NCBI GenBank assembly: GCA_046484885.1
Contig: JAWOIA010000075.1
Location: forward strand, 26,689-58,688
DNA length: 32,000 nucleotides
From: Desulfosarcina sp.
GTDB taxonomy: Bacteria; Desulfobacterota; Desulfobacteria; Desulfobacterales; Desulfosarcinaceae
Direction: 5' to 3'
This document shows positions 3,718 through 32,000 of this stretch, one piece after another. The notes beneath the pieces are model-generated. The model did not search any database. It worked only from the letters and a program-made list of their open reading frames with translations, and was not told the DNA's origin. Positions within the stretch are counted from its first letter, which is position 1. Every line of letters starts with the position of its first letter. The translations under genes and the position numbers were made by a program.

Positions 3718-3766
3718 AAAAACAATTTTCACCATCGGCACATCAATAATGAACAGGAGAAGACAA

Positions 3767-5218
3767 ATGGACTCCAAAGGTCTCAGCGGCGGCATTTACC
3801 AACCGTTGTCGCCGGCAGGCATCGAAACCATTCACGCCGCATCGCTGGCTATCCTCGAAAAGACCGGTATCACCTGGGAATCCGGTCTGGAGGAAACGGT
3901 GGATATGCTGGCGTCCGCCGGCGCGACCGTTGACCGGCAAGCCAGACGGATCCGTTTTGACCGGAAACTGGTCCTCGAACAGGTGGCCAAAGCGCCAGCG
4001 CGGGTGATTCTTTACGCACGCGATGGGAAAAACGACCTCGACCTGACCGAGGACAAGGTTCATTTAGGCACCGGGGGTGCTGCCGTCAAAATCCTCGATC
4101 TGGAAAGCGGGGCGCCCCGTCCTTCAACCCTCCGCGACCTCTATGACCTTGGCCGGCTGGTGGATCGGTTGGACCACATTCACTTTTTCCTGCGGCCTTG
4201 CATTCCCACGGATATCCCCAAAGCCGACTATGACATCAATATGTTCTACGCCTGCCTCAAAGCGACGGGAAAACATGTCATGAGCGGGGTCAATGACGAG
4301 ACGGGGCTGGAGAACGTGATTGAGATGTCAGCTTTGCTGGCCGGAAGCGCAGAACAGCTGCGAGCCAAACCCTTCATCTCGATCATCACCTCCTTTGCCA
4401 TCTCACCGCTGAAATTGTGCACCCAGTCCACACGGATCATGCAGGCCTGCAACCGCAAGGGAATCCCCGTGGTCCTCTCCGCCGCCCCCATGTCCGGCTC
4501 CACCAGTCCCATGACCATGGCCGGCACGCTGGCCCAGCTCCACGCCGAGCAGTTGTCCGGCATCACCATCTGCCAGCTGACCCGCCCCGGCGCACCACTG
4601 CTCTACGGCGGCATCCCGGGCATGGCCAACATGGCCACCATGGGCTATCTGGGCGGCGGCGTGGAGTGTGGCATGATGAATGCCGCGGTCCATCAACTGG
4701 CCGCCCACATCAAGGTGCCCAACTACAACTCCGCCGGGTTGACCGACTCCAAAATTCCCGATGCCCAGGCCGGCTGGGAGAAAGCCATGACCATCCTGCT
4801 GGCCGCCATGGGCGGTTCCAACTTCATGCACCACAGCGCGGGCATGCTGGAATCGATGCTGACGGTCGCCCCGGAGCAGTTTGTCATGGACGACGAGATC
4901 ATCGGCATGACCTGCAAGGTGCTCACGGGCATCGCGGTGGATGCCGACCACCTGGCCCTGGAAGTGATCGACGCCGTGGGGCCGGCCGGCAACTTCATGA
5001 TGGATGCCCATACCATGCAATACATGCGCAGCGAGTATTTTCAGGGCAACGGCGTCACCGATCGCAAAAGCCGCCACCATTGGGAACAGGCCGGAGCGAC
5101 GGATGCCCGCCAGCGCGCCAGGGAGATCGCCCGCAAGATTCTTGCGTCGCCGGAAACCCCCTACATTCCATCGGAAATTGATCAGGCCATCCGGAAACGG
5201 TTTGCCGTGCTGCTGTGA
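3767..5218 (+). CDS. MttB-superfamily (trimethylamine methyltransferase family) protein, non-pyrrolysine type, 483 aa
   Basis: Length and overall sequence pattern are typical of MttB-family proteins, e.g. the N-terminal LSPAGIETIHAASLAILEKTGI block. The frame has no internal TAG, so it is not a Pyl enzyme. Start moved from 3749 to ATG 3767 because AGGAGA lies 6 nt upstream. Confidence 0.75.
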   Translation: MDSKGLSGGIYQPLSPAGIETIHAASLAILEKTGITWESGLEETVDMLASAGATVDRQARRIRFDRKLVLEQVAKAPARVILYARDGKNDLDLTEDKVHLGTGGAAVKILDLESGAPRPSTLRDLYDLGRLVDRLDHIHFFLRPCIPTDIPKADYDINMFYACLKATGKHVMSGVNDETGLENVIEMSALLAGSAEQLRAKPFISIITSFAISPLKLCTQSTRIMQACNRKGIPVVLSAAPMSGSTSPMTMAGTLAQLHAEQLSGITICQLTRPGAPLLYGGIPGMANMATMGYLGGGVECGMMNAAVHQLAAHIKVPNYNSAGLTDSKIPDAQAGWEKAMTILLAAMGGSNFMHHSAGMLESMLTVAPEQFVMDDEIIGMTCKVLTGIAVDADHLALEVIDAVGPAGNFMMDAHTMQYMRSEYFQGNGVTDRKSRHHWEQAGATDARQRAREIARKILASPETPYIPSEIDQAIRKRFAVLL

Positions 5219-8017: not shown

Positions 8018-8683
8018 ATGGGTGGGCCCACCGTGATGCTTCAGGAAAAAAACGCCGCCAACACCATTCCGACGCTGGTCAAAAACCAGGCCCTGGTGGG
8101 GCAGCGCCGGCGGCAGATTGTGGATGCGGCGGTGAACCTGTTCATCGACAAGGGGTTCCACAAGACCACCACCCGCCAGATTGCCCGAGCGGCCGGGATC
8201 TCCATCGGCTCACTCTACGAGTACATCGCCACCAAAGAGGATGTCCTCTATTTGGTATGCGATGCCATCCATGCCGAGATCGAACGCGGTGTCGCCGAAG
8301 CGCTTAAAAGAGCCAATAAGGGGAAAAACCCCTTGGCTGAAGTGATCCGTGAATATTTCATGGTCTGCCACCGCATGAACGACCACATCCTCCTGATCTA
8401 CCAAGAGACCCAGTCCCTGCCCGCCAAATGGCGGCGGATGGTACTGGAAAATGAAATCCGCATTACCGGGATTTTTACCGGCGTGCTGGCCGGGCTGATG
8501 GTCTCGGGGGCGCTGCCGCGGATATCGCCGCGCAAACTGGACCTGGTCGCCCATAACATCTCCGTATTGGGGCACATGTGGACCTTCCGGCGCTGGTTTC
8601 TGGCCAACCACTACACGGTCGAGGAGTATATTGATTTCCAGACCCACAACATCCTTGGCATGTGCCAAGAAAGTGCCGCTTGA
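8018..8683 (+). CDS. TetR/AcrR family transcriptional regulator
   Basis: N-terminal HTH QRRRQIVDAAVNLFIDKGFHKTTTRQIARAAGISIGSLYEYIATKEDVL. The start is ambiguous (ATG 8018 or ATG 8036) and neither has a clear RBS. Confidence 0.8.
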   Translation: MGGPTVMLQEKNAANTIPTLVKNQALVGQRRRQIVDAAVNLFIDKGFHKTTTRQIARAAGISIGSLYEYIATKEDVLYLVCDAIHAEIERGVAEALKRANKGKNPLAEVIREYFMVCHRMNDHILLIYQETQSLPAKWRRMVLENEIRITGIFTGVLAGLMVSGALPRISPRKLDLVAHNISVLGHMWTFRRWFLANHYTVEEYIDFQTHNILGMCQESAA

Positions 8684-8734
8684 AAAAAGCGGCACAGCCT
8701 TCACGACACCAATAACCAACGCAGGAGGGATGGA

Positions 8735-9889
8735 ATGGATTTTGAGCTTAACAAAACCCAGAAAGACATTCAAAAAGCAGTCAGGGACTTCGTCAAGGGG
8801 GAGTTTACCAAGGAACTGGCCTTCGAGTTGGAGCAAAAGCACGAGTTCCCCCGCAAAATCTGGAAAAAAGCCTGCGACCTGGGACTGATCGGGGTTCACT
8901 TTCCAGAAAAATATTCGGGCCAGGGTCTCGGCTCTCTGGAAGACATTCTGGTCATCGAAGAGCTTTGCCGCGGCGATTCCACCATCGGCAGCGCCGTGGC
9001 CCTGGCGCCCTTCGCTTCGGAAACCATTTTACATTACGGCACCGATGCACAAAAAGAGAAATACCTGCCGGCCGTGGCCGAAGGCGAAATGCTCTCCGCC
9101 GGCGCCTTCACCGAACCCGATCACGGGTCGGACATCACGTTCATGAACACCACCGCTGTTCGCGACGGCGACGAGTGGGTGGTCAACGGCGTCAAGACGT
9201 TCATCACCAACGGCGGGCTGGCGGGCTTTTACAGCGTATTGTGCCAGACCGACCCGGACGCCAAGCCCGGCTACCGCGGCCAGAGCCTGATCTTGGTGGA
9301 GGCCGATCGCGCAGGCCTCTCCACCGCTGACGTGGGCCCCAAAATGGGCATCCGCATGATGGCCACCGCCGAAGTGGTCTTCAAGGAGGTGCGCGTACCC
9401 CTGTCCAATCTCATCGGCGCGGAGAACAAGGGGTTTTACCACGTCCTGCACTTTTTCGATGAAAGCCGCATCCAGGTAGCCGCCCAGGCGCTGGGCACCG
9501 CCCAAGGAGCCTATGATCGGGCCCTGGCCTACGTCAAGCAGCGCGAACAGTTCGGCAAGAAAATCGCCCAGTTCCAGGTCACGCAGCACAAACTGGCCGA
9601 CATGGCCACCAAGATTGAGCTGGCCCGACTGATCACTTACAAAGCCGCCTGGAACTTCGACCAGGGGCGCATCGATCCCAAGCTGACCTCCATGGCCAAA
9701 ATGTACGCCGCCCGCACCGCTGTGGAAGTGGCCGACGAGGCGATCCAGCTTTTAGGCGGCTACGGCTACATGACCGAATATGAGGTGGAGCGCTTCTACC
9801 GCGATGCAAAAATAACCGAAATCTACGAGGGCACCAAAGAGATCCAGAAGAACACCATCGCCAGCGCCTTGATCGGCAAACTGAAATAG
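8735..9889 (+). CDS. Acyl-CoA dehydrogenase, 384 aa
   Basis: Full-length ACAD pattern with the C-terminal catalytic-Glu context [26 protein letters not shown] upstream of ATG 8735. Confidence 0.9.
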
Positions 9890-21073: not shown

Positions 21074-22060
21074 ATGATGCGGAAATTAGTTGTGAAAAGA
21101 ACCCTGGTGACCGTGGCGGCCTTGCTGACCCTGTCGACGGCCTCCCAGGCCTCCGACCTGGTCGACCCCAACCTCAAACCCTATCAGCCGGTTTCGGGGG
21201 TGTCGGGCAACATCAAGAGCATCGGTTCCGACTCGATGAACAACACCATGACCCTCTGGGCCGAAGGCTTCCTGGGGCAGTATCCCAACGTTCAGATCGA
21301 GATCGAGGGCAAGGGCTCCGGCACCGCGCCGCCGGCCATGATCAGCGGCACCGCCCAATTCGGTCCCATGAGCCGACCCATGAAGGGCGAAGAGATCGAC
21401 AACTTCGAGAAAAGCTACGGCTACAAGCCCGTCGAGTTGGCGACCAGCATCGACATGCTGGCGGTGTATGTCCACAAGGACAACCCCATCGAGTGCCTGA
21501 GCCTGCAACAGGTGGACGCCATCTTCTCCAAAACCCGGCGCGGCGGTCATGACCAGAATATCCGGACCTGGGGCGATGTGGGCCTCACCGGCCAGTTCGC
21601 CAATATGCCCATCAGCCTCTACGGCCGCAATTCGGCTTCGGGAACCTACGGCTTTTTCAAGGACAACGCCCTGTTCGGCGGTGACTACAAGGACGAGGTC
21701 AAGGAGCAGCCGGGCAGTTCCTCGGTGGTTCAGGGTACCGCCAGTGAGTTGGGCGGGATCGGTTATTCCGGCATCGGTTATATGACCGCCGACGTGCGGG
21801 CCGTGCCCCTGGCTTCGACCCCCGACGGCAAGTGCGTATCGGCCACCCCGGATAACGCCTACACCGGGGAGTATCCTTTGGCCCGGTACCTGTATGTCTA
21901 TGTGAACCACAAGCCCGGCAGCACCATGGACCCCCTGCGCCGGGAATTCATCCGCTACGTCTTCAGCCGGGAAGGTCAGGAGGACGTGGTCCGCGACGGC
22001 TACTATCCGATCACCCAGGTAATCGCCGAGGAACAGATGTCCACGGTTGGCATCCGCTAA
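21074..22060 (+). CDS. pstS: Phosphate ABC transporter substrate-binding protein PstS, 328 aa
   Basis: Signal peptide MMRKLVVKRTLVTVAALLTLSTASQA. PstS-family blocks GSDSMNNTM, GKGSGTAPPAMISGTAQFGPMSRPMK and GIGYSGIGY. RBS AAAGGAGAA. Confidence 0.9.
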   Translation: MMRKLVVKRTLVTVAALLTLSTASQASDLVDPNLKPYQPVSGVSGNIKSIGSDSMNNTMTLWAEGFLGQYPNVQIEIEGKGSGTAPPAMISGTAQFGPMSRPMKGEEIDNFEKSYGYKPVELATSIDMLAVYVHKDNPIECLSLQQVDAIFSKTRRGGHDQNIRTWGDVGLTGQFANMPISLYGRNSASGTYGFFKDNALFGGDYKDEVKEQPGSSSVVQGTASELGGIGYSGIGYMTADVRAVPLASTPDGKCVSATPDNAYTGEYPLARYLYVYVNHKPGSTMDPLRREFIRYVFSREGQEDVVRDGYYPITQVIAEEQMSTVGIR

Positions 22061-22080
22061 GCAGCGTTCCGGACTTGCAG

Positions 22081-22131
22081 CTCCGGTGGCGCAGCAGTTG
22101 ATGTGCGTCCGCCACCGGAGCCCCTACTTTT
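22081..22131 (+). terminator. Intra-operon hairpin/attenuator between pstS and pstC
   Basis: Perfect 11-bp stem ctccggtggcg (22081-22091) / cgccaccggag (22110-22120) with an 18-nt loop, followed by cccctactttt. Confidence 0.45.
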
Positions 22132-22186
22132 AGTTCCCGCCATCGGGGCTGCGCTGTTTCAACACCTTGATCTTACGGCTGCAATA

Positions 22187-24802
22187 ATGAACACGCAAAA
22201 AAAATTCACCGGTGCCGGTCGCCGTTACACCACCAAAACCAGCGTTAAAATGATCGAGCACCTTACCAAAACGCTGATAACGTTGGGCGGGGTCGGGACC
22301 ATCATCGCGGTGGCTGGGGTGTTTGTTTACCTGACCAGCGTGGTGGTGCCATTGTTCGCCGGGGCCGACTGGAGCTTGCGCCACCAGGTGGCCGGAGTTG
22401 ATGCGGCCGCCAAGTCCGGTCAGCACCTGGTTGCTGACGAGTTTTTGCTTTCCGCCTGGGTTATCGAGGAGCAGGGGAGCCGGATTCGCTCCTTTCGCCT
22501 GGATACCGGTGAGACCCTGATCAGTGATGACCTTTTTGGCGGCGACACTCCCTTGGCTATTACATACGAGCCCAACTCGCAGATGATCGCCGCCACCTTC
22601 CCGGATGGCCGGATACAATTGAGCGCGGTGGCCATTAAAACCGAATTTCTCACCGATGAAAGCGTCCTGCCGGCCCGGCTCAACGCTTTGGAAATCGGCC
22701 AGATCGCCAATTATGAAGGTGGGGTGGTGCAGCGAACCCCGGTGGGTCAGCTCCGCCGCCTGCGGCTGGAAATCAACCACCAGCCGCCCATTGCCACGGA
22801 GATCGAAGCGCTGATGCTCATCGATGTGGCCGTGTTGACCACCGGGCCGGTCATCACCACCCTGGCCGCCGACGGCCGGTTGCGGGTGCAGAACATCGCC
22901 ATCCGCCGCAACATGCTCACCGGCCAGACCACCACTTCGGTCAGCGGCGGGGAGCTGGCGCTGGATCTGACCGCCCATGGCCTGCCCCGCCAGGTCGTGG
23001 TGTCCGGGCGGGGGGATACGGTGTACCTGATTTGGGAGGACGGCCACCTGGTCCGGGTGGACAGCCGCGATACCCGGCAACTGGTGGTGGCCGAAGAGGT
23101 GAATCTGCTGCCGAAAGGGGATGCCCGGGTAACCGCCGCCGTCGCCCTGATCGGAAAAACCACCCTTATTGTCGGCGACTCCCGGGGCCGGGTCCGGGCT
23201 TGGTTCCGCACCCGGCCAGAGGGGGCGGCCAGTTCCGACGGCGGCGCCTTGACCATGGTCCACGATCTGGGGCAGGGGCCGGCCGCGGTTGCCAGGCTCT
23301 CGGCCTCCATGCGGACCCGGCTGTTGGCAGCCGGTTTTACCGACGGCACCGTGCAGGTTTACCATGTTACCAGCAACCAGCTTCTGGTGGAGGAAACGGC
23401 CGGGGTCGGGCCGGTGGCGGCAGTGGCCCTGGCCCCCCGGGATAATCTCTTGGCCGTCCTGACCCCCGCCGGTTTCACCGCCTGGGAGATGGACCTCAAA
23501 CATCCCGCCGCCAACCTCCATACCATTTTCGGCAAGGTACATTACGAGGGGTTGAACGAGCCGCGCCATGTCTGGCAGTCCGCCAGCGGCACCGACGATT
23601 TCGAGCCCAAGTACAGCCTGACCCCGTTGATCTTCGGAACCCTCAAGGCCACCTTTTACTCCATGCTCTTCGGGGTGCCTTTAGCCCTGCTGGCGGCCGT
23701 TTACACCAGTGAGTTCATGGAAAGCGGCGGCCTGCGCACCAAAATCAAACCCCTGGTCGAGGTGATGGAAAGCCTGCCTACGGTGGTCCTGGGTTTTCTC
23801 GCCGCCCTGGTGTTCGCCACCTTTGTCGAAGGGGCGGTGGCCGGGGTGCTGGCGGCCTTCTTTACCGTGCCGCTCTGCTTTGTGCTGGCCGCCTATCTCT
23901 TTCAGTTGCTGCCGGTGGAAAAATTTGTCCGGATGTCCCAGTTTCGCTTCTACTTCCTGCTTTTTCTGGCCCTGCCGGCGGGCATTTTTCTGGCCGGCCA
24001 ATTTGGTCCCATTGTCGAATATCTCCTTTTTTCCGGTGACATCAAGGCCTGGCTCGACGGGCAGGTGGGCTCCGGGACCGGGGGCTGGTTCATCATGTTC
24101 CTGCCGCTTTCCCTGCTGGCCGTGGTTTTTCTCCTGGGCGGATGGATCAACCCCTGGCTGCGGGAACGGGTGGCCAATTGCTCCCGCTTCCGTACCGGCG
24201 TGGTGGAGGCAGGCAAGTTCGCCGTGGGTACGGTTGCAGTGCTGACCCTGGCCTGGCTGCTGGCCTCGCTGCTGACCCTGATCGGTTTCGACTCGCGGGG
24301 GGATTTCCCCCTCATCGGCCAGGTCATGGGCACCTACGTGCAGCGTAATTCCCTGGTGGTGGGTTTCGTCATGGGCTTTGCCATCATCCCTGCGGTGTAC
24401 ACCATCGCCGAGGACGCCCTTTCCAGTGTGCCGGAGCACCTGCGTTCAGGCTCCCTGGCCGCCGGGGCCACCCCCTGGCAAACGGCGACCCGAATCATCA
24501 TCCCCACCGCCGCCAGCGGTCTCTTTTCAGCGGTGATGCTAGGCCTGGGCCGAGCGGTGGGGGAGACCATGATCGTGCTGATGGCCACCGGCAACACCCC
24601 GGTGATGGAATGGAACATCTTCAACGGTTTCAGGACACTGTCGGCCAATATCGCGGTGGAACTGCCGGAATCAGTGATTTTCAGCACCCATTACCGGATT
24701 CTCTTCCTGGCCGCACTGACCCTGTTTTTGATGACCTTCGTGGTCAACACCCTGGCCGAAGTGGTGCGCCAGCGTTTCCGCAAGCGAGCTTACCAGCTAT
24801 AA
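22187..24802 (+). CDS. pstC: Phosphate ABC transporter permease PstC, long form with ~415-aa periplasmic beta-propeller-like insert, 871 aa
   Basis: The C-terminal ~370 aa is a canonical PstC core, with the EAA-type loop AEDALSSVPEHLRSGSLAAGATPWQTATRIIIP. The N-terminal region has one TM helix followed by WD40-like repeats. ATG 22187 is preferred because the 22103 start in the track would run through the pstS terminator hairpin. Confidence 0.85.
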   Translation: MNTQKKFTGAGRRYTTKTSVKMIEHLTKTLITLGGVGTIIAVAGVFVYLTSVVVPLFAGADWSLRHQVAGVDAAAKSGQHLVADEFLLSAWVIEEQGSRIRSFRLDTGETLISDDLFGGDTPLAITYEPNSQMIAATFPDGRIQLSAVAIKTEFLTDESVLPARLNALEIGQIANYEGGVVQRTPVGQLRRLRLEINHQPPIATEIEALMLIDVAVLTTGPVITTLAADGRLRVQNIAIRRNMLTGQTTTSVSGGELALDLTAHGLPRQVVVSGRGDTVYLIWEDGHLVRVDSRDTRQLVVAEEVNLLPKGDARVTAAVALIGKTTLIVGDSRGRVRAWFRTRPEGAASSDGGALTMVHDLGQGPAAVARLSASMRTRLLAAGFTDGTVQVYHVTSNQLLVEETAGVGPVAAVALAPRDNLLAVLTPAGFTAWEMDLKHPAANLHTIFGKVHYEGLNEPRHVWQSASGTDDFEPKYSLTPLIFGTLKATFYSMLFGVPLALLAAVYTSEFMESGGLRTKIKPLVEVMESLPTVVLGFLAALVFATFVEGAVAGVLAAFFTVPLCFVLAAYLFQLLPVEKFVRMSQFRFYFLLFLALPAGIFLAGQFGPIVEYLLFSGDIKAWLDGQVGSGTGGWFIMFLPLSLLAVVFLLGGWINPWLRERVANCSRFRTGVVEAGKFAVGTVAVLTLAWLLASLLTLIGFDSRGDFPLIGQVMGTYVQRNSLVVGFVMGFAIIPAVYTIAEDALSSVPEHLRSGSLAAGATPWQTATRIIIPTAASGLFSAVMLGLGRAVGETMIVLMATGNTPVMEWNIFNGFRTLSANIAVELPESVIFSTHYRILFLAALTLFLMTFVVNTLAEVVRQRFRKRAYQL

Positions 24803-24809
24803 TTTGAAA

Positions 24810-26684
24810 ATGAGCCGAAAAAAAGTGCGTCACACCAATTTTAAAGCCGATTTGAAGATGCCGGGGACCCCTGCGGCCCGGCAGGCGCCGGACTCCGGCG
24901 GCTCCCGTGCCCCTGCCCCGCAAGCCGGGCGGATCTGGCGCAAAGGCACGGGCCGGGGCGCCACCCTGGCCGCCCATGGTCAGCCCATGGTCTGGCTGGC
25001 CGGCGGTATGCTGGCCATCTGCGTAGTGATGATCATCGGCCTGATCCTGCTGGTTACGGTGCGAGGAGTGGCCACCTTCTGGCCCGGCCCTCTGGTCAGC
25101 TTCGTGCTGGCCGACGGCCAGGTGGTCAGCGGTGAGATCACCCGCACCGGCTCCTACGAGCCCCGGCCCGAACTGATCCTGGCCTTGCCGCCGGAACATC
25201 AAGCCAAGGCCGAGGCCCTGCTGGCGGAAAATGACGGCCGCTCCCATCGTGACCTGGTCCGGACCGGCAACTTCGAGCTGGATGGAAACCACTTCAACTG
25301 GGTCAGTGATTTCACGGTGGCCGAAAAACACCACCCCCAATGGGGACTGGTGATCGAGCGTCTGACCTGGGGCCGCTTCTACGGAGAACCCCGCGAATTC
25401 AGGGTTGACGGGCAAGTGGTGGCCGATACCCCTGAAGCCGCCTGGGCCCAGTTCAAAAAACATCACGGCGAGGCCCGGAAACGTTGGGGGGAGCGCCGCC
25501 GCCTGGAGAGCAAGGCCTTGGGCAGAATCAACCATGCCCAGGAAAAGGCGCGCCTGAAGGTGCGCGAGGCGGAGCTAGCGCTGCAACAGGCCCGGATTCA
25601 GCACGGCAGTAATTCGGCGGCCTATCGCATGGCCAGGGAGGACCTGGACCGGCGGCAGGAAGTTTTCAACCAGGACAACCAGGGGTTTGCCGCCCAATAC
25701 CAGCAAGTCCGCCAGCAGATCAATGCCCTGAACCGGGAAAACGACCGCTATCAGATGCGGTTGGTCACCTATGACGGCCACGAGAAAATGCTCGGGCTGG
25801 CCGAAGTGGTCCGGGCCTATCCCGCCAACCAGGTGGGCCTGCTCAATCGGATCGGCATCTATCTGGATCGCTGGCTGGAATTCCTGCGCGACGATCCCCG
25901 CGAAGCCAACAGTGAAGGCGGGGTGTTCCCAGCCATCTTCGGTACCGTGGTCATGACCCTGATCATGGTTGTCTGCGTAGTGCCCTTCGGCGTGCTGGCC
26001 GCCCTTTACCTGCGCGAATACGCCAAGGCCGGTCCCCTGATCAGCACCATCCGGATCGCGGTCAACAACCTGGCCGGGGTGCCCAGCATCGTTTACGGCG
26101 TCTTCGGCCTGGGCTTCTTCTGCTACCTGGTGGGCAGCAGTATTGATGACTTGTTTTTCACCGCCAAGCTGCCATCACCCACCTTCGGCACCGGCGGCAT
26201 TCTCTGGGCCAGCCTGACCCTGGCCCTGCTGACCCTGCCGGTAGTGATCGTGGCTACCGAGGAGGCCCTGGCGGCGGTGCCCGGCTCCATGCGGGAAGGC
26301 TCATACGCTTGCGGGGCCAGCAAGTGGCAGACCATCCAGCGCATCGTGCTGCCCCGGGCCCTGCCCGGAATCATGACCGGGATGATCCTGGCCATGGCGC
26401 GCGGAGCCGGCGAGGTGGCTCCCCTAATGCTGGTCGGAGCGGTGAAACTGGCGCCCGAGCTGCCCATTGACGGTTTTGCCCCCTTCGTCCACCTGGAGCG
26501 CAGCTTCATGCATTTGGGCTTCCATATTTACGATCTCGGTTTTCAGAGCCAGAACAGCGAAGCGGCCATTCCCATGGTCTTTACCACCACCTTGCTGCTG
26601 ATTCTGATCATTACCCTGCTTAATCTGGGGGCAATCTACACGCGGAACCGGTTGCGGCGAAAATTCATGGTCAGCGCAGTTTAA
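24810..26684 (+). CDS. pstA: Phosphate ABC transporter permease PstA, long form with ~280-aa periplasmic insert, ~624 aa
   Basis: Canonical PstA core at the C-terminus (TEEALAAVPGSMREGSYACGASKWQTIQRIVLP). N-terminal TM helix, then a large insert. The start is ATG 24810 or TTG 24804, immediately after the pstC stop. Confidence 0.85.
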   Translation: MSRKKVRHTNFKADLKMPGTPAARQAPDSGGSRAPAPQAGRIWRKGTGRGATLAAHGQPMVWLAGGMLAICVVMIIGLILLVTVRGVATFWPGPLVSFVLADGQVVSGEITRTGSYEPRPELILALPPEHQAKAEALLAENDGRSHRDLVRTGNFELDGNHFNWVSDFTVAEKHHPQWGLVIERLTWGRFYGEPREFRVDGQVVADTPEAAWAQFKKHHGEARKRWGERRRLESKALGRINHAQEKARLKVREAELALQQARIQHGSNSAAYRMAREDLDRRQEVFNQDNQGFAAQYQQVRQQINALNRENDRYQMRLVTYDGHEKMLGLAEVVRAYPANQVGLLNRIGIYLDRWLEFLRDDPREANSEGGVFPAIFGTVVMTLIMVVCVVPFGVLAALYLREYAKAGPLISTIRIAVNNLAGVPSIVYGVFGLGFFCYLVGSSIDDLFFTAKLPSPTFGTGGILWASLTLALLTLPVVIVATEEALAAVPGSMREGSYACGASKWQTIQRIVLPRALPGIMTGMILAMARGAGEVAPLMLVGAVKLAPELPIDGFAPFVHLERSFMHLGFHIYDLGFQSQNSEAAIPMVFTTTLLLILIITLLNLGAIYTRNRLRRKFMVSAV

Positions 26685-26708
26685 CTCAATAACCAGTGGT
26701 GTTTTCGA

Positions 26709-27614
26709 ATGGCCAATCAAGAAAAACGTCCCGATGTAATGACCCAACGGCAGGACAGGCCCATGCCGCTGATCGACAAACCGCCCCGCAAAAGTCGCCT
26801 TCAGGCCATTTCCGCCGGAAAATGGTTCCCGCCCGTGGTGGACCCGGCCCTGCGTCAGGAGGAGATCGTCCTGGCTATCAAAGATTTCTGCCTCTGGTAT
26901 GGGCTGGCCCAGGCTCTATTCGACGTCTCGTTGGACATTCCTTACGGCAAGGTCACCGCCATCATTGGACCCTCCGGTTGCGGCAAATCGACCCTGCTGC
27001 GCTCGGTCAACCGCCTCAATGATCTGGTCGATGCGGTGCGGATCAAAGGCGACATGCTGCTCAACGGTGATTCAATCTACGGCCGGGGGGTCGATGTCAT
27101 CGAGTTGCGCAAACGCATGGGCATGGTCGCCCAAAAACCCAACCCCTTTCCCATGACCATCTACGAAAATGTCGTCTACCCCCTGCGCATCGACGGCATC
27201 AATGACCGCCGGCTCCTTGACGAAGTGTGCGAAAAGTCAATTCGGGGAGCCGCCCTGTGGAACGAGGTCAAAGACCGCCTGCAACAAAGCGCCCTGGGCC
27301 TTTCCGGCGGACAGCAGCAGCGCCTGTGCGTGGCGCGGGCCATTGCCTCCGAACCGGAAATCCTGCTGATGGACGAACCCTGCTCGGCATTGGATCCCAT
27401 CGCCACCGGCAAGATCGAGGAGTTGATCGACCAGCTGCGCGGCGAATACACCATCCTGATTGTCACCCACAACATGCAGCAGGCGGCCCGGGTCAGCGAC
27501 TACACCGCTTTCATGTATCTGGGCCAACTGGTGGAATACGGTCCGACCCCGGCCTTCTTCCAGAAACCCAAACTGCAGGAGACCGAAGATTATATCACCG
27601 GACGCTTCGGTTGA
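26709..27614 (+). CDS. pstB: Phosphate ABC transporter ATP-binding protein PstB, 301 aa
   Basis: Walker [10 protein letters not shown], signature LSGGQQQRL, Walker B ILLMDEP, and the PstB-typical C-terminus [10 protein letters not shown]. The start is uncertain (ATG 26709, 26739 or 26763). Confidence 0.9.
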
Positions 27615-27700
27615 TATCGTTCCGCCAAAGCGGGTGGCAGGCTTTTTGGCCAGGTCAGGCATCCGCGAGACAGATAAAAACCAAAAAGGAGAATGCGATT

Positions 27701-28207
27701 ATGAAAAGAAGTATGGGTACCCTTGCGTTGGCCGTCGGTTTGAGCCTGTTTTTCAGCTGTGCCACCGGTACGGTAGCCGGCAACGTTTCCCCTGCACAAA
27801 ACGCCTCTTATGAGCGAGCCGGCTTCGAAACCAGGATTGACAAGGGCGGCCGGCTGTGGGTGTTTGAATCCGGCAGTAAGGCCCTGGCCGACTACGACGG
27901 CAAGGGCGCCCCGGCGAAGCACATCGTTCGACCCCTGGCCGGACCCGGCGGCATCACCCTGAAGGCGGCTGATGGCCACACCATCGACGCCTACCTCCTG
28001 GCCCGCCCCGGCTTCGTTACCCGCATCGACAAACGGGGCCATCTGTGGGTGTTTGAATCCGGCAGCCAGGCCCTGGCCGACTACGACAGCAAGGGCGCAC
28101 CGGCGAAGCACACCGTTCGACCATTGGCCGGACCCAAACAAATGACCATCAAGGCAGTTGACGGCGCAATCATTGACCAGTACCTGCAGGCTGCGCCCTA
28201 TCTCTAA
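27701..28207 (+). CDS. Exported (possibly lipo-) protein made of two tandem ~61-aa repeats, 168 aa, unknown family
   Basis: AAAGGAGAA RBS before ATG 27701. Signal peptide MKRSMGTLALAVGLSLFFSC. Repeat 1 is aa 41-101 (27821-28003) and repeat 2 is aa 104-164 (28010-28192), identical at 46/61 positions by hand alignment. Confidence 0.7.
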   Translation: MKRSMGTLALAVGLSLFFSCATGTVAGNVSPAQNASYERAGFETRIDKGGRLWVFESGSKALADYDGKGAPAKHIVRPLAGPGGITLKAADGHTIDAYLLARPGFVTRIDKRGHLWVFESGSQALADYDSKGAPAKHTVRPLAGPKQMTIKAVDGAIIDQYLQAAPYL

Positions 28208-28305: not shown

Positions 28306-29004
28306 TTATTGAATGATCCCGGTTACATGGATCGGGATGGTGGGCCGCAGGGCGCTGTCGGTGTGCAGGTACACGGTATCGACATACCGCCCGGGCTCCT
28401 GCCGGGTGTTTTCGATGCGGATAGACCAGTCCCTCAACCCGTCGCCGCTGCGCTGGACCAATTCATAGGTGATGAACTCCCCGCGCCGGGCCTGGATTCG
28501 TTTGATCGTAAAGGGGTAATCCGCTCGAGGGACGATCGCCACCTCTACGGCCAGCAGGCTTCCGGCCGGGCCGGCCAGGCGCACCCGTTCCGGGCGGATG
28601 TCGGCGAACTTTTCCACTATTCCGGTTACGGCCACCTCAATCCAGGGCCGGTCGGGGTCGTCGGTCTGGATGCGCACCCGCTCCCGGATGGTCCGCCCCC
28701 CGTAGCCGCTGGTATTGAACTTGACCTGGATCGTTCCCTCCTGCCCGGGAGGGATCCGCCGCGTGCTCGAGGCGGTGGTGCACCCTCACCCGGATTTGAT
28801 GTTCAGGATATTCAAAATCTCGTCGCCCCGGTTGTGCAGAATGAAATCGTACAAAATCGGGACCCCCTCCACCACCGTTCCAAACTCAAAGAGACTTTCG
28901 GCAAGAAAGGCTTCCGGAGCAGGGCCGACAGGGTCAGCTGTGCTCAACGCCGGCGCGAGCAGGATACTCAAAATGATCCAACCGTACAGAGCCTTGCTGA
29001 ACAT
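28306..29004 (-). CDS. Exported DUF1573-domain protein with in-frame TGA (28786-28788) at the conserved C-G-C motif: candidate selenoprotein (232 codons); the alternative reading is a nonsense pseudogene
   Basis: Track ORFs 28786..29004 and 28306..28677 are in the same frame and are separated only by the TGA plus 36 open codons. The joined product is MFSKALYGWIILSILLAPALSTA...FEFGTVVEGVPILYDFILHNRGDEILNILNIKSG[TGA]GCTTASSTRRIPPGQEGTIQVKFNTSGYGGRTIRERVRIQTDDPDRPWIEV.... It matches the DUF1573 pattern with the TGA at the first Cys of SCGCT. AAGGAGA lies 5 nt before ATG 29004. Confidence 0.55.
28735..28794 (-). promoter_or_regulatory. Candidate bacterial SECIS-like hairpin embedding the TGA
   Basis: Hand-folded mRNA. 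The pairings are UCCGGG/CCCGGG (6 bp), G:C, GGGU/AUCC, CCGCC/GGCGG and CG/CG, closing an AGCA apical loop 19-22 nt after the UGA. A competing hairpin UCCCUCC-CGGGCA-GGAGGGA lies at 28735-28754. Confidence 0.35.
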
Positions 29005-29014
29005 GGTGTCTCCT

Positions 29015-29620
29015 TTACTCGTGTGAATCCGGACGGCTCGCTTCCAATTCCGCCATCAGCGCATCGACGCCGGTTGCAATGCTGCGGCCGCCGCTGTAGC
29101 GGGTCATCTCCTGGTCCGGTCGGGTCACGACACAGGTGGGGGTGCTTTTGACTTCAAAGCGGTTGATCAGTGCCACCCACTGGTCGAATAGGGGCTTGAC
29201 ATCCAGCAGCGCCAGCGGGATGTGGTTTTGCCTGAGCGCCTGGATCAGGTCGCCTTCTGAATGCACCGTTTTGGCCTTGGCGATATCAAACAAAACTTGT
29301 CGAATTCGTAAAATGTCGGCAAAGCTGCTGGACGCATTGGCCGCGTAAAGGAAATAGCGCGAAAAAACCGGTGTCAGCGCATAGATGGGCATATCCACAA
29401 AAGTGATTCTGGCGCCCATCTGGTGCAGTTTCACCAAAGCGTCGTCCAGGTAGGGCTCCACCGCCCGGCAGGGCGGGCAGAAATAATCCGTGAAAATAAG
29501 AACTTCGATCGGCCCGCAACCGTAAGAAAAAAGGCTGCGCGGCGCCTGACCCGCCGAAGCCGGCGCGCTTGCCAAAAACAAGCACACCATCAACAGAATC
29601 ATTGGGCCGGTTCGCGACAC
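29015..29620 (-). CDS. Exported DsbA-like thioredoxin-fold oxidoreductase (CPPC), 201 aa
   Basis: Signal peptide MSRTGPMILLMVCLFLASAPASAG. IEVLIFTDYFCPPCRAVEPYL active-site context and a C-terminal VKSTPTCVV cis-Pro-type loop. GTG start with AAGGAGG upstream. Its TAA stop overlaps the RBS of the DUF1573 gene. Confidence 0.75.
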   Translation of the reverse strand: MSRTGPMILLMVCLFLASAPASAGQAPRSLFSYGCGPIEVLIFTDYFCPPCRAVEPYLDDALVKLHQMGARITFVDMPIYALTPVFSRYFLYAANASSSFADILRIRQVLFDIAKAKTVHSEGDLIQALRQNHIPLALLDVKPLFDQWVALINRFEVKSTPTCVVTRPDQEMTRYSGGRSIATGVDALMAELEASRPDSHE

Positions 29621-29760
29621 ATTGCCTCCTTGATCGGTACGATGAGTTGTGTTGGCGTCATTTTTTTACCTGGGGCGCCCGCGGCAGCCATAACCACACC
29701 GGCCGTCATCCACTGGTTAACCCCGATAAAAAAGCTGATCAACCATCTCTCGAAAAACCC

Positions 29761-30747
29761 CTATTGGTGTTTTTGGTTCGCAATGCCGGAACCGCTTTGA
29801 TCTTTTGGTTCAACCCCAATCCGGGCGAGCTGTTTGAGGACCTCGGGTTCCGGGAAGAAACCCACGTTTCGAAACGTTTCCCGGCCCGTGGCATCGTAAA
29901 ACACCTGAACCGGGATGGACCGAACGCCATAGCGGGCCGCCAGGAGTTGGTCCTCCCCCACATGGACGAACACGACGTTCAACTGCTCCGCAAAGGTATG
30001 GCGCAGCTTCTCCAATATGGGTTGCATCATGTCGCAGGGAACGCAACCGGCGGCGCCAAACTCAACCAGAGTCGGCTTGTTGGAAAGACGGGCCTGATCC
30101 ACTGGATTGTCCAGGGCAAGACGGCTCTGGGATTCCACCCAGCTTGCATCAACGCGCAAATTCACCGATTCCGCCAATGCGGAGATGGTTGTCATGACGG
30201 CGTGCTGCTTTTTCTCTTGGAGCAGATAGTGCCGGATAGCGTCCTGGACCTCTTGGAACGACGCGGCACCGATCATTTCGCGGTTGGACTGGTAAAAGGC
30301 CATAAGCTCGCTTTCGGAAACGGAAACGTCAGCGAACTGGCGCTCGAACCATGTCTGGATGCGTTCATCATCGTCTCCGCTGTTCGGAATAGCGGCTTTG
30401 TCCGCCTCATTCACGAGCATCCGACGGGTGGCTTCCTGATCCAAGATAAAGAGCAGGTGCTTTTCGAGTTGTCCGCGCACTGCGGGCGCTTCCTGATTGA
30501 CGACCGCCATCAGTTCCGCACGCGTAATTTCAATGCCTTCGGCGACTAACAGGATCGATCCGTCCAACGGTTCCAATTTGGCGTAACTCAAAACTCCCAA
30601 GGCCAGCATCGGATATTTGGCCTTCACGGTCAGTTGTTGCGCGCCCTGAACCGTGGCGGCCGTGAGCGCCAAAAACGCACCCAAGAGAAGCCACAGGCCC
30701 AATAACCGGATGCTGCGATGTTTATTCAGTGGTCGGAAAACGTGCAT
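29761..30747 (-). CDS. Exported fusion protein: SurA-N/PpiD-like chaperone domain + C-terminal thioredoxin domain (CVPC), 328 aa
   Basis: Signal peptide ...LLGLWLLLGAFLALTAATVQGA. SurA_N-type block VSESELMAFYQSNREMIGAASFQEVQDAIRHYLLQEKKQ. Trx block PTLVEFGAAGCVPCDMMQPILEKL...YGVRSIPVQVFYD. Confidence 0.7.
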   Translation of the reverse strand: MHVFRPLNKHRSIRLLGLWLLLGAFLALTAATVQGAQQLTVKAKYPMLALGVLSYAKLEPLDGSILLVAEGIEITRAELMAVVNQEAPAVRGQLEKHLLFILDQEATRRMLVNEADKAAIPNSGDDDERIQTWFERQFADVSVSESELMAFYQSNREMIGAASFQEVQDAIRHYLLQEKKQHAVMTTISALAESVNLRVDASWVESQSRLALDNPVDQARLSNKPTLVEFGAAGCVPCDMMQPILEKLRHTFAEQLNVVFVHVGEDQLLAARYGVRSIPVQVFYDATGRETFRNVGFFPEPEVLKQLARIGVEPKDQSGSGIANQKHQ

Positions 30748-30841
30748 GATTACCCTTTCGGCCTTTACGGTGTCATCTTAAACGGGTGATTGTGTTGCTT
30801 TCCACCTTGCAATCGGATCCATCACACCGACAGCGGCGCTG

Positions 30842-31261
30842 TCAGCTCACGCCCAGCTTGGCAAGGTTCTCGACAATCCGTTTTTTGTCCATGAAACCGG
30901 TGTGCCGGTACACTTCCCGTCCGCTGACATCAAAGAAAATTTGGGTCGGAATGGCCCGGATGCCATATTTTTTGGCTTCGGACGGGTCCTTCCACACATC
31001 GATAAAGATGATATCGGCCCTTCCGGCATATTCCCTTTTAAGCTCTTCCAGAATAGGCGCCATCATTTTACAGGGAATGCACTCTGTGGCACCCAGGTCG
31101 ATCATGGTCACCCGGCCGGTGGTTGGTATCGTGGACAAGTCCGGGGCAATGGCCCCGTTCACCTCCGGCCCAAGGGACGCTGAGGGCGGCTGCATCATTT
31201 TGTAGAGCACCAAAAGGGCAACAACGGCCAGGGCTGCAACGAGTATTCGATTCAGCTTCAT
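30842..31261 (-). CDS. Membrane-anchored periplasmic thioredoxin-like protein (CIPC), 139 aa
   Basis: N-terminal TM helix ILVAALAVVALLVLY. Trx fold VTMIDLGATECIPCKMMAPILEEL...YGIRAIPTQIFFD. Confidence 0.8.
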   Translation of the reverse strand: MKLNRILVAALAVVALLVLYKMMQPPSASLGPEVNGAIAPDLSTIPTTGRVTMIDLGATECIPCKMMAPILEELKREYAGRADIIFIDVWKDPSEAKKYGIRAIPTQIFFDVSGREVYRHTGFMDKKRIVENLAKLGVS

Positions 31262-31264
31262 GGT

Positions 31265-31522
31265 TTAAACCTCATCCGCAGAACCAGCCCCCGCGTTGAT
31301 CCAAGCGAGCACCTCTTCTTTCTTGGGTATCTTGCCCACCGACTTGACTTCGCCGTCGATTACCACCGCAGGCGTGCCGAACACCCCGTACCCCGCGATT
31401 TTCATCACGTCGGTGACTTTTTCCACATCCACCGCTACACCGGCCTCGGCAACCGCCTCCCGGACCACGGTTTCCGCCTGTTGGCATCTGGGGCAGCCAG
31501 GTCCCAAAACTTTGATTTCCAT
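31265..31522 (-). CDS. Small thioredoxin-family protein (Thioredoxin_3 / redox-active disulfide protein 2 type, CPRC), 85 aa
   Basis: MEIKVLGPGCPRCQQAETVV...VEKVTDVMKIAGYGVFGTPAVVIDGEV is the typical pattern of this family. AAGGAG RBS. No signal peptide. Confidence 0.8.
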   Translation of the reverse strand: MEIKVLGPGCPRCQQAETVVREAVAEAGVAVDVEKVTDVMKIAGYGVFGTPAVVIDGEVKSVGKIPKKEEVLAWINAGAGSADEV

Positions 31523-31568
31523 AATAAAACTCCTTTAAGTGGTGGTTTTGGTCGGTCAAGCCCAATCG

Positions 31569-31928
31569 TCAGCGCCGGCAAATGGATTCACGATGAAAAT
31601 CGGACAGTCGGGCCAGCAGGACCGCCACCTCGGCGTCCTCCTCCAGCCAGTGACGCAGACTTCCCAACAAGGCACTCGCATAGGGATTGCAGACGCCTTC
31701 TGCCAGCCGATAGTTGACCCACAGCCCCTCTTTGGAAGCGGTGATCAAGCCGGCCTCTTCTAAAACCTTGAGGTGCTTGCTGGTGGTCGACTGCGCCAGA
31801 CCCAAGGCCTCTTGGATTTCACACACGCAAAATTCCCTGCGCTGGAGCAGTTTGACCATCTTGACCCGGTTGGTCTCAGACAGGGCTTTCATGACTTTGA
31901 TAAATTCACGCATATCCCCCCCCGTCAT
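31569..31928 (-). CDS. ArsR/SmtB-family metalloregulatory repressor
   Basis: wHTH with a CVC motif: VKLLQRREFCVCEIQEALGLAQSTTSKHLKVLEEAGLI. The alternative start ATG 31913 (MREF...) is preceded by a G-rich tract. Confidence 0.85.
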   Translation of the reverse strand: MTGGDMREFIKVMKALSETNRVKMVKLLQRREFCVCEIQEALGLAQSTTSKHLKVLEEAGLITASKEGLWVNYRLAEGVCNPYASALLGSLRHWLEEDAEVAVLLARLSDFHRESICRR

Positions 31929-31940
31929 ATCGCTACATGC

Positions 31941-31969
31941 AAATTTATAGATTTACTTCGTTTTGTCAA
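31941..31969 (-). promoter_or_regulatory. Candidate promoter and operator of the arsR-trx cluster
   Basis: On the minus strand: TTGACA (31964-31969), 16-nt spacer, TAAATT (31942-31947). An imperfect 14-bp palindrome AAATTTATAGATTT (31941-31954, 12/14 self-complementary) overlaps the -10. Confidence 0.3.
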
Positions 31970-32000
31970 GAAAAAAAAGGGGCCGCCAACTCATATCGAT

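Follow-up and report, generated by a model that had tools for sequence, protein, structure and literature searches.

A putative ArsR-controlled envelope thiol/selenol redox module in Desulfosarcina sp., a compact variant of a recurrent Desulfobacterales gene island

Why should an ArsR-type regulator head a row of genes for thioredoxin (Trx)-fold proteins that ends with a gene for a selenocysteine (Sec)-containing DUF1573 protein? This question is raised by one end of a 32,000-nucleotide (nt) stretch of Desulfosarcina sp. DNA (contig JAWOIA010000075.1, positions 26,689 to 58,688; assembly GCA_046484885.1), the whole of which is hereafter referred to as the window. The six open reading frames (ORFs) in question are all on the minus strand and encode, from arsR onwards, a 119-amino acid (aa) ArsR with the motif FCVCEI (31569-31928), an 85-aa cytoplasmic Thioredoxin_3 protein of the MTH895/ArsE family with CPRC (31265-31522), a 139-aa Trx with CIPC and an N-terminal hydrophobic anchor that is predicted to face the periplasm (30842-31261), a 328-aa protein with a signal peptide, an N-terminal domain and a Trx domain with CVPC (hereafter the N-domain-Trx protein; 29761-30747), a 201-aa exported DsbA/ScsC-like Trx-fold protein with CPPC (29015-29620) and an OS_HP2-family selenoprotein with a DUF1573 domain, whose 233-codon frame contains one in-frame TGA (28306-29004). 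The intergenic gaps calculated from the ORF coordinates are 46, 3, 94, 140 and 10 nt. An earlier reading of the window made without database searches (hereafter the original prediction) had described these six co-directional genes, gaps and CxxC motifs, all of which were reproduced from the ORF coordinates and translations. Four consecutive genes for Trx-fold proteins are more than chance, and all six gene families also co-occur in independent genomes with amino-acid identities of 40-80%. In metagenome contig L001, the 328-aa protein is identical to that of the window and the remaining module proteins are 99-100% identical. With moderate confidence, we propose that the six genes constitute one ArsR-controlled unit, a putative envelope thiol/selenol redox module that would be a compact variant of an island recurrent in Desulfobacterales.

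The protein at the end of the row scored 59 bits against the DUF1573 model (cut-off, 26.1) and, with Sec entered as Cys, 119.9 bits over residues 35-131 against NF041425, the model of the "OS_HP2 family (seleno)protein" (cut-off, 100; E = 4.4e-35). By these scores it is assigned to the already known OS_HP2 family and is not new. OS_HP2 was defined in an Olavius symbiont metagenome (Zhang and Gladyshev, 2007; PMC1976440), and the entry "DUF1573 domain-containing protein, UGC" appears for it in the lists of two reviews (PMC9312934; PMC13188914). The literature that we searched gives it as a hypothetical protein only, with neither gene context nor function. When one genome per species was scanned, 33 OS_HP2 loci were identified, nearly all of them in Desulfobacterales metagenome-assembled genomes (MAGs), and 31 of these loci cover the position of the UGA codon read as Sec in the window (28786-28788, minus strand; ...IKSG-U-GCTT...). 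In every one of the 31, TGA is found at the identical codon, and the flanking sequence SG-U-GCT[AV][AV]S is conserved. The close homolog P0002 is a Cys form (CGC). A library-wide search with an OS_HP2 profile yielded 809 clusters at 50% identity (E ≤ 1e-10). Among the best 149 of these clusters, 40 have CGC, 3 have WGC and 64 begin just past the motif, which is the signature of Sec forms that were cut at UGA.

Downstream of the UGA codon lies a candidate bacterial Sec insertion sequence (SECIS), made up of two hairpins located 10-52 nt 3' of the UGA and found in nearly all of the 31 homologs. Hairpin 1 (28756-28775, minus strand) is kept in two registers with different compensating stems. Hairpin 2 (28735-28754, minus strand; UCCCUCC-CGGGCA-GGAGGGA) is 92.6% paired over the 31 sequences, with four double-sided changes, including CG-to-UA, and with one Pro-to-Leu change that is balanced by a synonymous change; it coincides with the conserved IPPGQEG codons. 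Given that the window sequence alone folds no better downstream of the UGA than shuffled sequences do (z = -0.38), the evidence for the SECIS is comparative only. No tRNA-Sec was found in the window. Gene callers either cut OS_HP2 genes into pieces of 72 aa and 123-155 aa or read the TGA as Trp (P0001 and P0003). Such splitting, together with the single in-frame TGA, might be taken to indicate a pseudogene broken by a nonsense mutation, in which case the module would end at the DsbA-like gene. We regard this as extremely improbable and rejected it, because the TGA is invariant, conservation on both sides of it is purifying, other members of the family have Cys at the same position, the hairpins are conserved and the NF041425 cut-off is passed. 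The terminal gene is thus, on comparative grounds, a genuine Sec-decoding gene.

The architecture of OS_HP2 consists of a signal peptide, a DUF1573 beta-sandwich with the Sec-Gly-Cys motif and a second beta-sandwich domain. Consistent with it, the AlphaFold2 (AF2) model of the Cys form P0002 (predicted local distance difference test (pLDDT), 90.7) has two beta-sandwich domains. A Foldseek search with this model returned generic hydin/ASH and immunoglobulin-like sandwiches and an uncharacterised protein of P. gingivalis (2qsv), none of which gives a functional lead, and the OS_HP2 profile matched no sequence in PDB. It should also be mentioned that domain 2 (28306-28600, minus strand, in the window) has a C-x6-C pair in most homologs (e.g., KRCTDGHDRCVLR). 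This pair is missing from the window protein (QRSGDGLRDWSIR) and from P0002.

In which company are OS_HP2 genes found elsewhere? The window proteins and their recurrent neighbors were mapped by tblastn onto the 33 OS_HP2 loci, with identities from Pfam and NCBIfam, and neighbors were counted at the 24 loci that have at least 3 kb upstream of OS_HP2. In Desulfobacterales MAGs, these loci form a variable island of co-directional and mostly closely spaced genes. It comprises genes for ArsR with CVC, the permease ArsP and one or two Thioredoxin_3/ArsE proteins, together with those for the N-domain-Trx protein and/or the anchored Trx, CcdA (DsbD_TM, 236 aa) and a membrane-anchored rhodanese. MauE/DoxX, which is sometimes fused to a cation diffusion facilitator (CDF) transporter, and OS_HP2 and/or the DsbA-like protein are encoded in it as well. 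Sometimes a PF04060 Fe-S protein gene is included. Genes for Acr3, a CDF transporter or ArsC are often present, and Acr3 often comes after a second arsR. CcdA is the most frequent neighbor of OS_HP2 (16 of the 24 loci), followed by the anchored Trx (15), MauE (14), rhodanese (13), ArsR (12), the Fe-S protein (11), Thioredoxin_3 (10), ArsP (9), Acr3 (8), the N-domain-Trx protein (7) and the DsbA-like protein (2). In the context of the Cys form P0002, the order is Trx-CcdA-OS_HP2-Thioredoxin_3, and another DsbA-like gene lies near P0007.

These results bear on the original prediction. Around OS_HP2, the N-domain-Trx gene is a neighbor at a minority of the loci and the DsbA-like gene a rare one. 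The six families recur together in related genomes while their order varies, and conservation of gene order is thus only partly borne out. The six-gene layout, which had not been recognized as a described system in the original prediction, is not the canonical form. Judged by the loci of its relatives, the window holds a compact and trimmed permutation of the larger variable island, from which ArsP, CcdA, rhodanese and MauE are missing.

Although a rare neighbor of OS_HP2, the DsbA-like protein is a regular end-member of these islands. When the search was started from this protein, the genes of its closest relatives were found to end strings of the type TMTrx-CcdA-(Acr3)-rhodanese-MauE, and DsbD_TM (CcdA) was present in 16 of the 53 DsbA-like loci. 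The DsbA-like gene adjoins OS_HP2 in metagenome loci L053 and L055-L057, and the order in locus L063 is ArsR, N-domain-Trx, DsbA-like and rhodanese. Loci L040, L041 and L045 lie in islands with ArsC, Acr3 and DGC genes, to which L040 and L045 add genes for a low-molecular-weight protein tyrosine phosphatase-type ArsC, methyltransferases, a DGC protein and a molybdopterin/NrfD complex. More distant relatives have a CDF gene 1.5-2.5 kb away. We also noticed in L041 a 103-aa ORF (8565-8876) that begins 4 nt past the DsbA-like gene and corresponds to the C-terminal beta-sandwich of OS_HP2 only (55% identity to residues 130-232), without the Sec-bearing DUF1573 domain.

Two further membrane-associated components of the island have conserved cysteine motifs. 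The MauE/DoxX protein encoded directly upstream of OS_HP2 has an invariant D[IV]xCGCF motif in all 32 homologs (e.g., L017, 3277-3843; L008, L009 and L016), in which the C-x-C spacing of CGC equals that of U-G-C in OS_HP2. The membrane-anchored rhodanese encoded beside MauE has YCDGE[ST]C. In addition, a Cys-rich protein of about 130-160 aa without a Pfam or NCBIfam match ("c14") is regularly encoded immediately before the N-domain-Trx protein (L009, 1039-1512; L008, 5495-5923; and at least six other loci); it is absent from the window. The cultured Desulfoferrobacter suflitae (L044, SCVX01000035.1; 12112-14696, minus strand) has a CcdA gene, a split DUF1573 gene (87 + 254 aa) and, after the DUF1573 pieces, a split DUF166 gene (101 + 82 aa). 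Given that DUF166 is another catalogued selenoprotein family, this locus may hold a cluster of two selenoproteins.

Among the four Trx-fold proteins, the 85-aa protein matched Thioredoxin_3 (PF13192; E = 3.4e-29, 101.1 bits) and TIGR00412 (97.7 bits; cut-off, 62). It has GPGCPRC at residues 7-13, and its sequence shows no signal peptide. The anchored 139-aa protein, whose N-terminus reads MKLNRILVAALAVVALLVLY, matched Thioredoxin (PF00085; E = 6.7e-14), and the genes for its homologs immediately precede CcdA at many of the relatives' loci. The 201-aa protein by itself matched Thioredoxin with E = 1.2e-5, and its score of 13.3 bits against the Pfam DSBA model was below the cut-off of 25.6. The profile of its family (A5), built from 30 homologs and searched against PDB, matched DsbA 3dvw (E = 2.5e-7; positions 28-191 of 196) and 4k2d (E = 1.9e-6), as well as the ScsC-type structures 4gxz (E = 2.2e-5), 6mhh and 6nen, which are associated with copper sensitivity and metal resistance. 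The family is invariant at C48, P50 and C51 of the CxxC and at T160 and P161 of the cis-Pro TP loop, and homologs of the 201-aa protein bear PF13462 and PF01323. The full-length match to 3dvw supports the earlier label "DsbA-like".

Homologs of the 328-aa protein number at least 673 and are about 313 aa long. The protein itself consists of an N-domain of about 180 aa and a Trx domain (residues 222-307; E = 6.9e-11). In its AF2 model (pLDDT, 90.2), the N-domain is mostly helical and is formed by a beta-hairpin, helices, a long helix and a beta-strand. The original prediction had labeled this domain "SurA-N-like", and the label did not find the backing of a significant match. Residues 1-221 matched neither SurA_N, SurA_N_2, SurA_N_3 nor any other Pfam model at E ≤ 10, and the N-domain profile (A6) matched SurA 2pv3 in its N-terminal part (E = 1.2) and Cj1289 3rgc in its C-terminal helix (E = 4.2), two PDB matches that are collinear and sub-significant. 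The top 50 Foldseek matches of the N-domain-Trx protein were thioredoxins only. The modeled topology of the N-domain is compatible with a SurA-like chaperone core. Taken together, the results are suggestive of a SurA/PrsA-type core, and "SurA-N-like" is a reasonable, unproven label.

How could such a unit be regulated? The window ArsR matched HTH_5 (PF01022; E = 5e-16) and NF033788 (89.1 bits; cut-off, 55), and it contains the CVC metalloid site of the ArsR/SmtB alpha3 type. The corresponding sequence LCVCE[IL]Q is kept at 14 related loci in the ArsRs that head the clusters. The alpha3 CVC arrangement is that of As(III)-responsive ArsRs, such as R773 ArsR of E. coli (ELCVCDL type), the third Cys of which is absent from the window protein. 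Neither the window ArsR nor P0139, a DsbA-like protein of 81% identity, was on record when looked up. In Pseudodesulfovibrio mercurii ND132, a related sulfate reducer, arsenic up-regulates an operon of the order ArsR-ArsP-ArsE(PF13192)-DGC (bioRxiv 10.1101/2022.10.17.512643), and locus L045 holds ArsR, ArsP, ArsE(PF13192) and DGC genes in the same order. The pairing of ArsR with a small Thioredoxin_3 protein had been recognized in the original prediction, and it matches the first two genes of ars operons of the ArsR-ArsP-ArsE type.

A promoter-like site is found upstream of arsR (TTGACA-16 nt-TAAATT; 31942-31969, minus strand). This sigma-70-like candidate has 10 of 12 consensus matches, overlaps an AT-rich imperfect palindrome and is also present in contig L001 (2143-2170). 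Terminator-like sites are as frequent in the region as in shuffled sequence (6 observed, 5.8 expected), and an Rfam search at the gathering threshold identified no RNA family within the module.

If periplasmic thioredoxins are to be reduced, electrons have to cross the cytoplasmic membrane. As had been stated in the original prediction, a membrane conduit is missing from the window: homologs of CcdA, DsbD, MauE and rhodanese were absent from all 32,000 nt, and tblastn searches of the whole window with CcdA, MauE, rhodanese, ArsP and Acr3 returned no match. The suggestion that CcdA/DsbD-like genes might follow beyond position 32000 could be followed up on contig L001, which runs 2.2 kb past the window end, and was not borne out over that distance; instead, genes of an MscS-type channel and of the TauE/SafE family (174-2076) lie there, co-directional with and upstream of arsR. 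TauE, which we take to belong to the same broad transporter superfamily as DsbD, was considered as a conduit and was not adopted because it recurs near OS_HP2 at only 1 of 32 loci. In L014, a TauE of 72% identity is encoded about 3.3 kb downstream of OS_HP2. The frequency of CcdA at the informative OS_HP2 loci indicates that the conduit absent from the window is CcdA in the relatives, whose loci add the MauE/DoxX membrane protein and the rhodanese to it.

From the observed gene content, Sec decoding signals, family memberships and recurrent co-localization, we infer an inducer, a direction of electron flow and a role of OS_HP2 as follows. A thiophilic metalloid, most likely As(III), would bind to the CVC site of ArsR and thereby derepress the unit. 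The unit would then supply the cytoplasmic ArsE-family Trx-like protein, two thioredoxins facing the periplasm (the anchored CIPC protein and the secreted N-domain-Trx protein with CVPC), the secreted DsbA/ScsC-like CPPC oxidoreductase and secreted OS_HP2, the Sec-Gly-Cys of which may serve as the terminal redox-active or metalloid-reactive site. CcdA, presumably encoded elsewhere in the source genome, would pass electrons from the cytoplasmic Trx system over the membrane to the periplasmic thioredoxins, whose genes it adjoins in the relatives. Thioredoxins and the DsbA/ScsC-like protein would keep the selenol/thiol pair of OS_HP2 and exposed envelope cysteines in the appropriate redox state, or recycle them to it, under metal(loid) stress. 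By analogy, the module would work like the copper-stress Scs system and the CcdA-ResA/TlpA pathways, and the relay may be dedicated to a specific client.

Several observations weigh against this proposal. Since a conduit gene is found neither in the window nor in the following 2.2 kb, electron supply in the source organism is assumed. The gaps of 94 and 140 nt leave room for internal promoters. The inducers of ArsR-family proteins are not readable from sequence, and the window ArsR scored 55.5 bits against NF007528, the curated arsenical-repressor subfamily model, whose cut-off is 97. The metalloid idea of the original prediction nonetheless fits the Acr3, ArsP, ArsC and CDF genes that share the relatives' islands. 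In addition, a diverged OS_HP2 subgroup (L031-L034; 39-46% identity) is encoded between priA and HAD/polA without any redox neighbors, and order and content differ so widely among loci that the islands could be mosaics. The six genes would then be neighbors merely because metal(loid)-resistance and redox genes gather in the same variable region, with ArsR and the ArsE-like Trx being the remnant of an organoarsenical-resistance operon that lost ArsP, the periplasmic Trx and DsbA-like proteins serving general disulfide homeostasis or cytochrome c maturation, and OS_HP2 having an unrelated role. The variation among loci, the housekeeping context of the diverged copies and the two wide gaps agree with such an origin, as do the loss from the window of ArsP, which normally lies between ArsR and Thioredoxin_3, and the N-domain-Trx gene of D. 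suflitae, which is located about 7 kb from CcdA-DUF1573 on the opposite strand. However, the same families are co-directional and tightly packed across many MAGs at protein identities of only 40-60%, the proximity of Sec and Cys forms of OS_HP2 to CcdA, Trx or MauE is much more frequent than would be expected of an exported protein picked at random, and genes for cytochrome c maturation were not seen in any locus examined. We therefore consider a mosaic origin unlikely, while still giving it more weight than any of the other alternatives.

The MauE and rhodanese genes of the relatives allow two further interpretations of OS_HP2. Because the CGC spacing of MauE matches the U-G-C of OS_HP2, whose gene comes next downstream, the two might form an unrecognized CXC-based redox pair. 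Exchange of a disulfide or selenenylsulfide would then take place between the C-G-C of MauE/DoxX and the U-G-C of its periplasmic partner OS_HP2, in the manner of DsbB and DsbA. An arsenite-induced envelope system of this kind would repair cysteines or shield them from thiophilic metalloids, or would capture metalloids on selenium, and the DsbA-like protein would replace MauE in the window. This interpretation, drawn by analogy with DsbB-DsbA, is doubtful and somewhat less probable than a mosaic origin. OS_HP2 could also be a periplasmic carrier of sulfur or selenium whose Sec-Gly-Cys would bear a persulfide, selenide or thio-arsenic species, much as the beta-sandwich of SoxY carries sulfur; the membrane rhodanese and MauE/DoxX would load it, and Trx proteins would unload or reset it. 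DoxX of M. tuberculosis works with the sulfurtransferase SseA, the YCDGE[ST]C rhodanese and the invariant-CGC MauE are encoded directly upstream of OS_HP2 at 13-14 of the 24 loci, and OS_HP2 is modeled as a tandem beta-sandwich protein, all of which would suit a carrier. It fits the window poorly, where rhodanese and MauE are absent yet OS_HP2 is kept with Trx and DsbA-like genes; moreover, no sox, dsr, selD or selA genes were seen in the loci, and the role assigned to OS_HP2 is pure analogy. A carrier function thus appears less probable again than a CXC-based pair, and improbable overall. An ArsR-controlled thiol/selenol redox module remains the reading that we prefer.

How does the proposed module compare to described systems? 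The Scs (suppressor of copper sensitivity) system consists of ScsB (DsbD-like), ScsC (DsbA-like) and ScsD (membrane-tethered Trx). The island resembles it in combining a conduit linked to metal stress, an anchored Trx and a DsbA-like protein, the last with the profile matches to the three ScsC-type structures, a likeness at the level of the types of parts and of profile matches. The island differs from the Scs system in that its regulator is of the ArsR type with CVC, the conduit of the relatives is a short CcdA instead of ScsB (the window having neither), an ArsE-like cytoplasmic Trx, an N-domain-Trx fusion and a selenoprotein are added and the hosts are Desulfobacterales. It shares with CcdA-ResA/CcmG/TlpA pathways the classical donor-acceptor layout, as the 236-aa DsbD_TM gene of the relatives directly follows genes for signal-anchored or exported Trx proteins with C[IV]PC. 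In contrast to those pathways, no genes for cytochrome c maturation or Cu-center assembly lie near the relatives' loci, where the neighbors are ars and CDF efflux genes, rhodanese, MauE and the selenoprotein, and the window has no CcdA. Like ars operons of the ArsR-ArsP-ArsE type, the window pairs a CVC-bearing ArsR with a TIGR00412 protein of 85 aa. Relatives keep ArsP between ArsR and ArsE and often have DGC, Acr3 and ArsC, whereas the window lacks ArsP and any other efflux or reductase gene and has four exported redox proteins instead. With other members of the OS_HP2 family (NF041425), the window gene shares the DUF1573 domain, U-G-C, Cys homologs and an above-cut-off score, to which the candidate stem-loop after the UGA may be added, and it differs from most of them in lacking the C-x6-C pair of domain 2.

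The three selenoprotein operon (Tso) includes an ArsR-type regulator (TsoR), a rhodanese/DsbD fusion selenoprotein (TsoB) and TsoX (PMC13188914). At the domain level, the island is similar to it in having an ArsR-type regulator, a DsbD-type domain, rhodanese, Trx folds and one or more selenoproteins. The Tso system was nevertheless rejected as an identity for the island, because the scores were far below the cut-offs (TsoR, 40.6 vs. 115; TsoB, 20-49 vs. 805; TsoX, 17.5 vs. 52). A non-exhaustive literature search returned no description of the combined island.

The individual parts are therefore of known kinds: the selenoprotein, the ArsR-ArsE pairing and CcdA-Trx relays have each been known already, nothing overturns current understanding and the window holds an incomplete version of the island. 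What is newly shown is the gene context of OS_HP2. This family has been catalogued since 2007 without a function, DUF1573, which has a CGC motif, is likewise a large family of orphan domains, and the island provides the first functional context for OS_HP2. Sec and Cys forms of OS_HP2 are persistently co-encoded with CcdA, periplasmic thioredoxins, CGC-bearing MauE/DoxX, rhodanese and DsbA/ScsC-like proteins, and these partner genes are under ArsR regulators of the CVC type and beside efflux genes for Acr3, ArsP and CDF proteins. A testable hypothesis follows, namely that sulfate-reducing Desulfobacterales have an envelope system for thiol/selenol redox reactions under metal(loid) stress. Sulfate reducers of this order drive the cycling of arsenic, mercury and selenium in sediments. 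If the hypothesis is true, the Scs/DsbD paradigm would be extended to anaerobes and to a selenoprotein end-point. If OS_HP2 and MauE/DoxX do form a CXC-based pair, the CGC-bearing proteins of the large DUF1573 family would represent a novel class of thiol oxidoreductases built on a beta-sandwich.

Some features of the window outside the module were also observed. An Rfam match to PYLIS_3, the mttB pyrrolysine insertion sequence (4739-4841, plus strand; 64.6 bits, E = 3.4e-11), lies within an MttB-family ORF (3749-5218; PF06253, E = 2.4e-112) that has ...NSAGLTDSK... at the corresponding place. Because this ORF is without an in-frame TAG, it is a non-pyrrolysine MttB homolog, and the PYLIS_3 match probably reflects homology of the coding sequence. 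Genes at 21074-27614 (plus strand), which are convergent with the redox module, look like those of a phosphate (Pst) ATP-binding cassette transporter. They include a pstS-like binding protein (PBP_like_2), permease ORFs of 899 and 626 aa and a 301-aa ATPase ORF; the Pfam scan covered the binding protein, and the remainder was judged from translations. Between pstB and the selenoprotein gene lies a lipoprotein-like ORF (27700-28207, plus strand; MKRSMGTLALAVGLSLFFSCATG...), in which a segment of about 65 aa occurs twice in nearly identical form (...RIDKGGRLWVFESGSKALADYDGKGAPAKH.. and ..RIDKRGHLWVFESGSQALADYDSKGAPAKH..).

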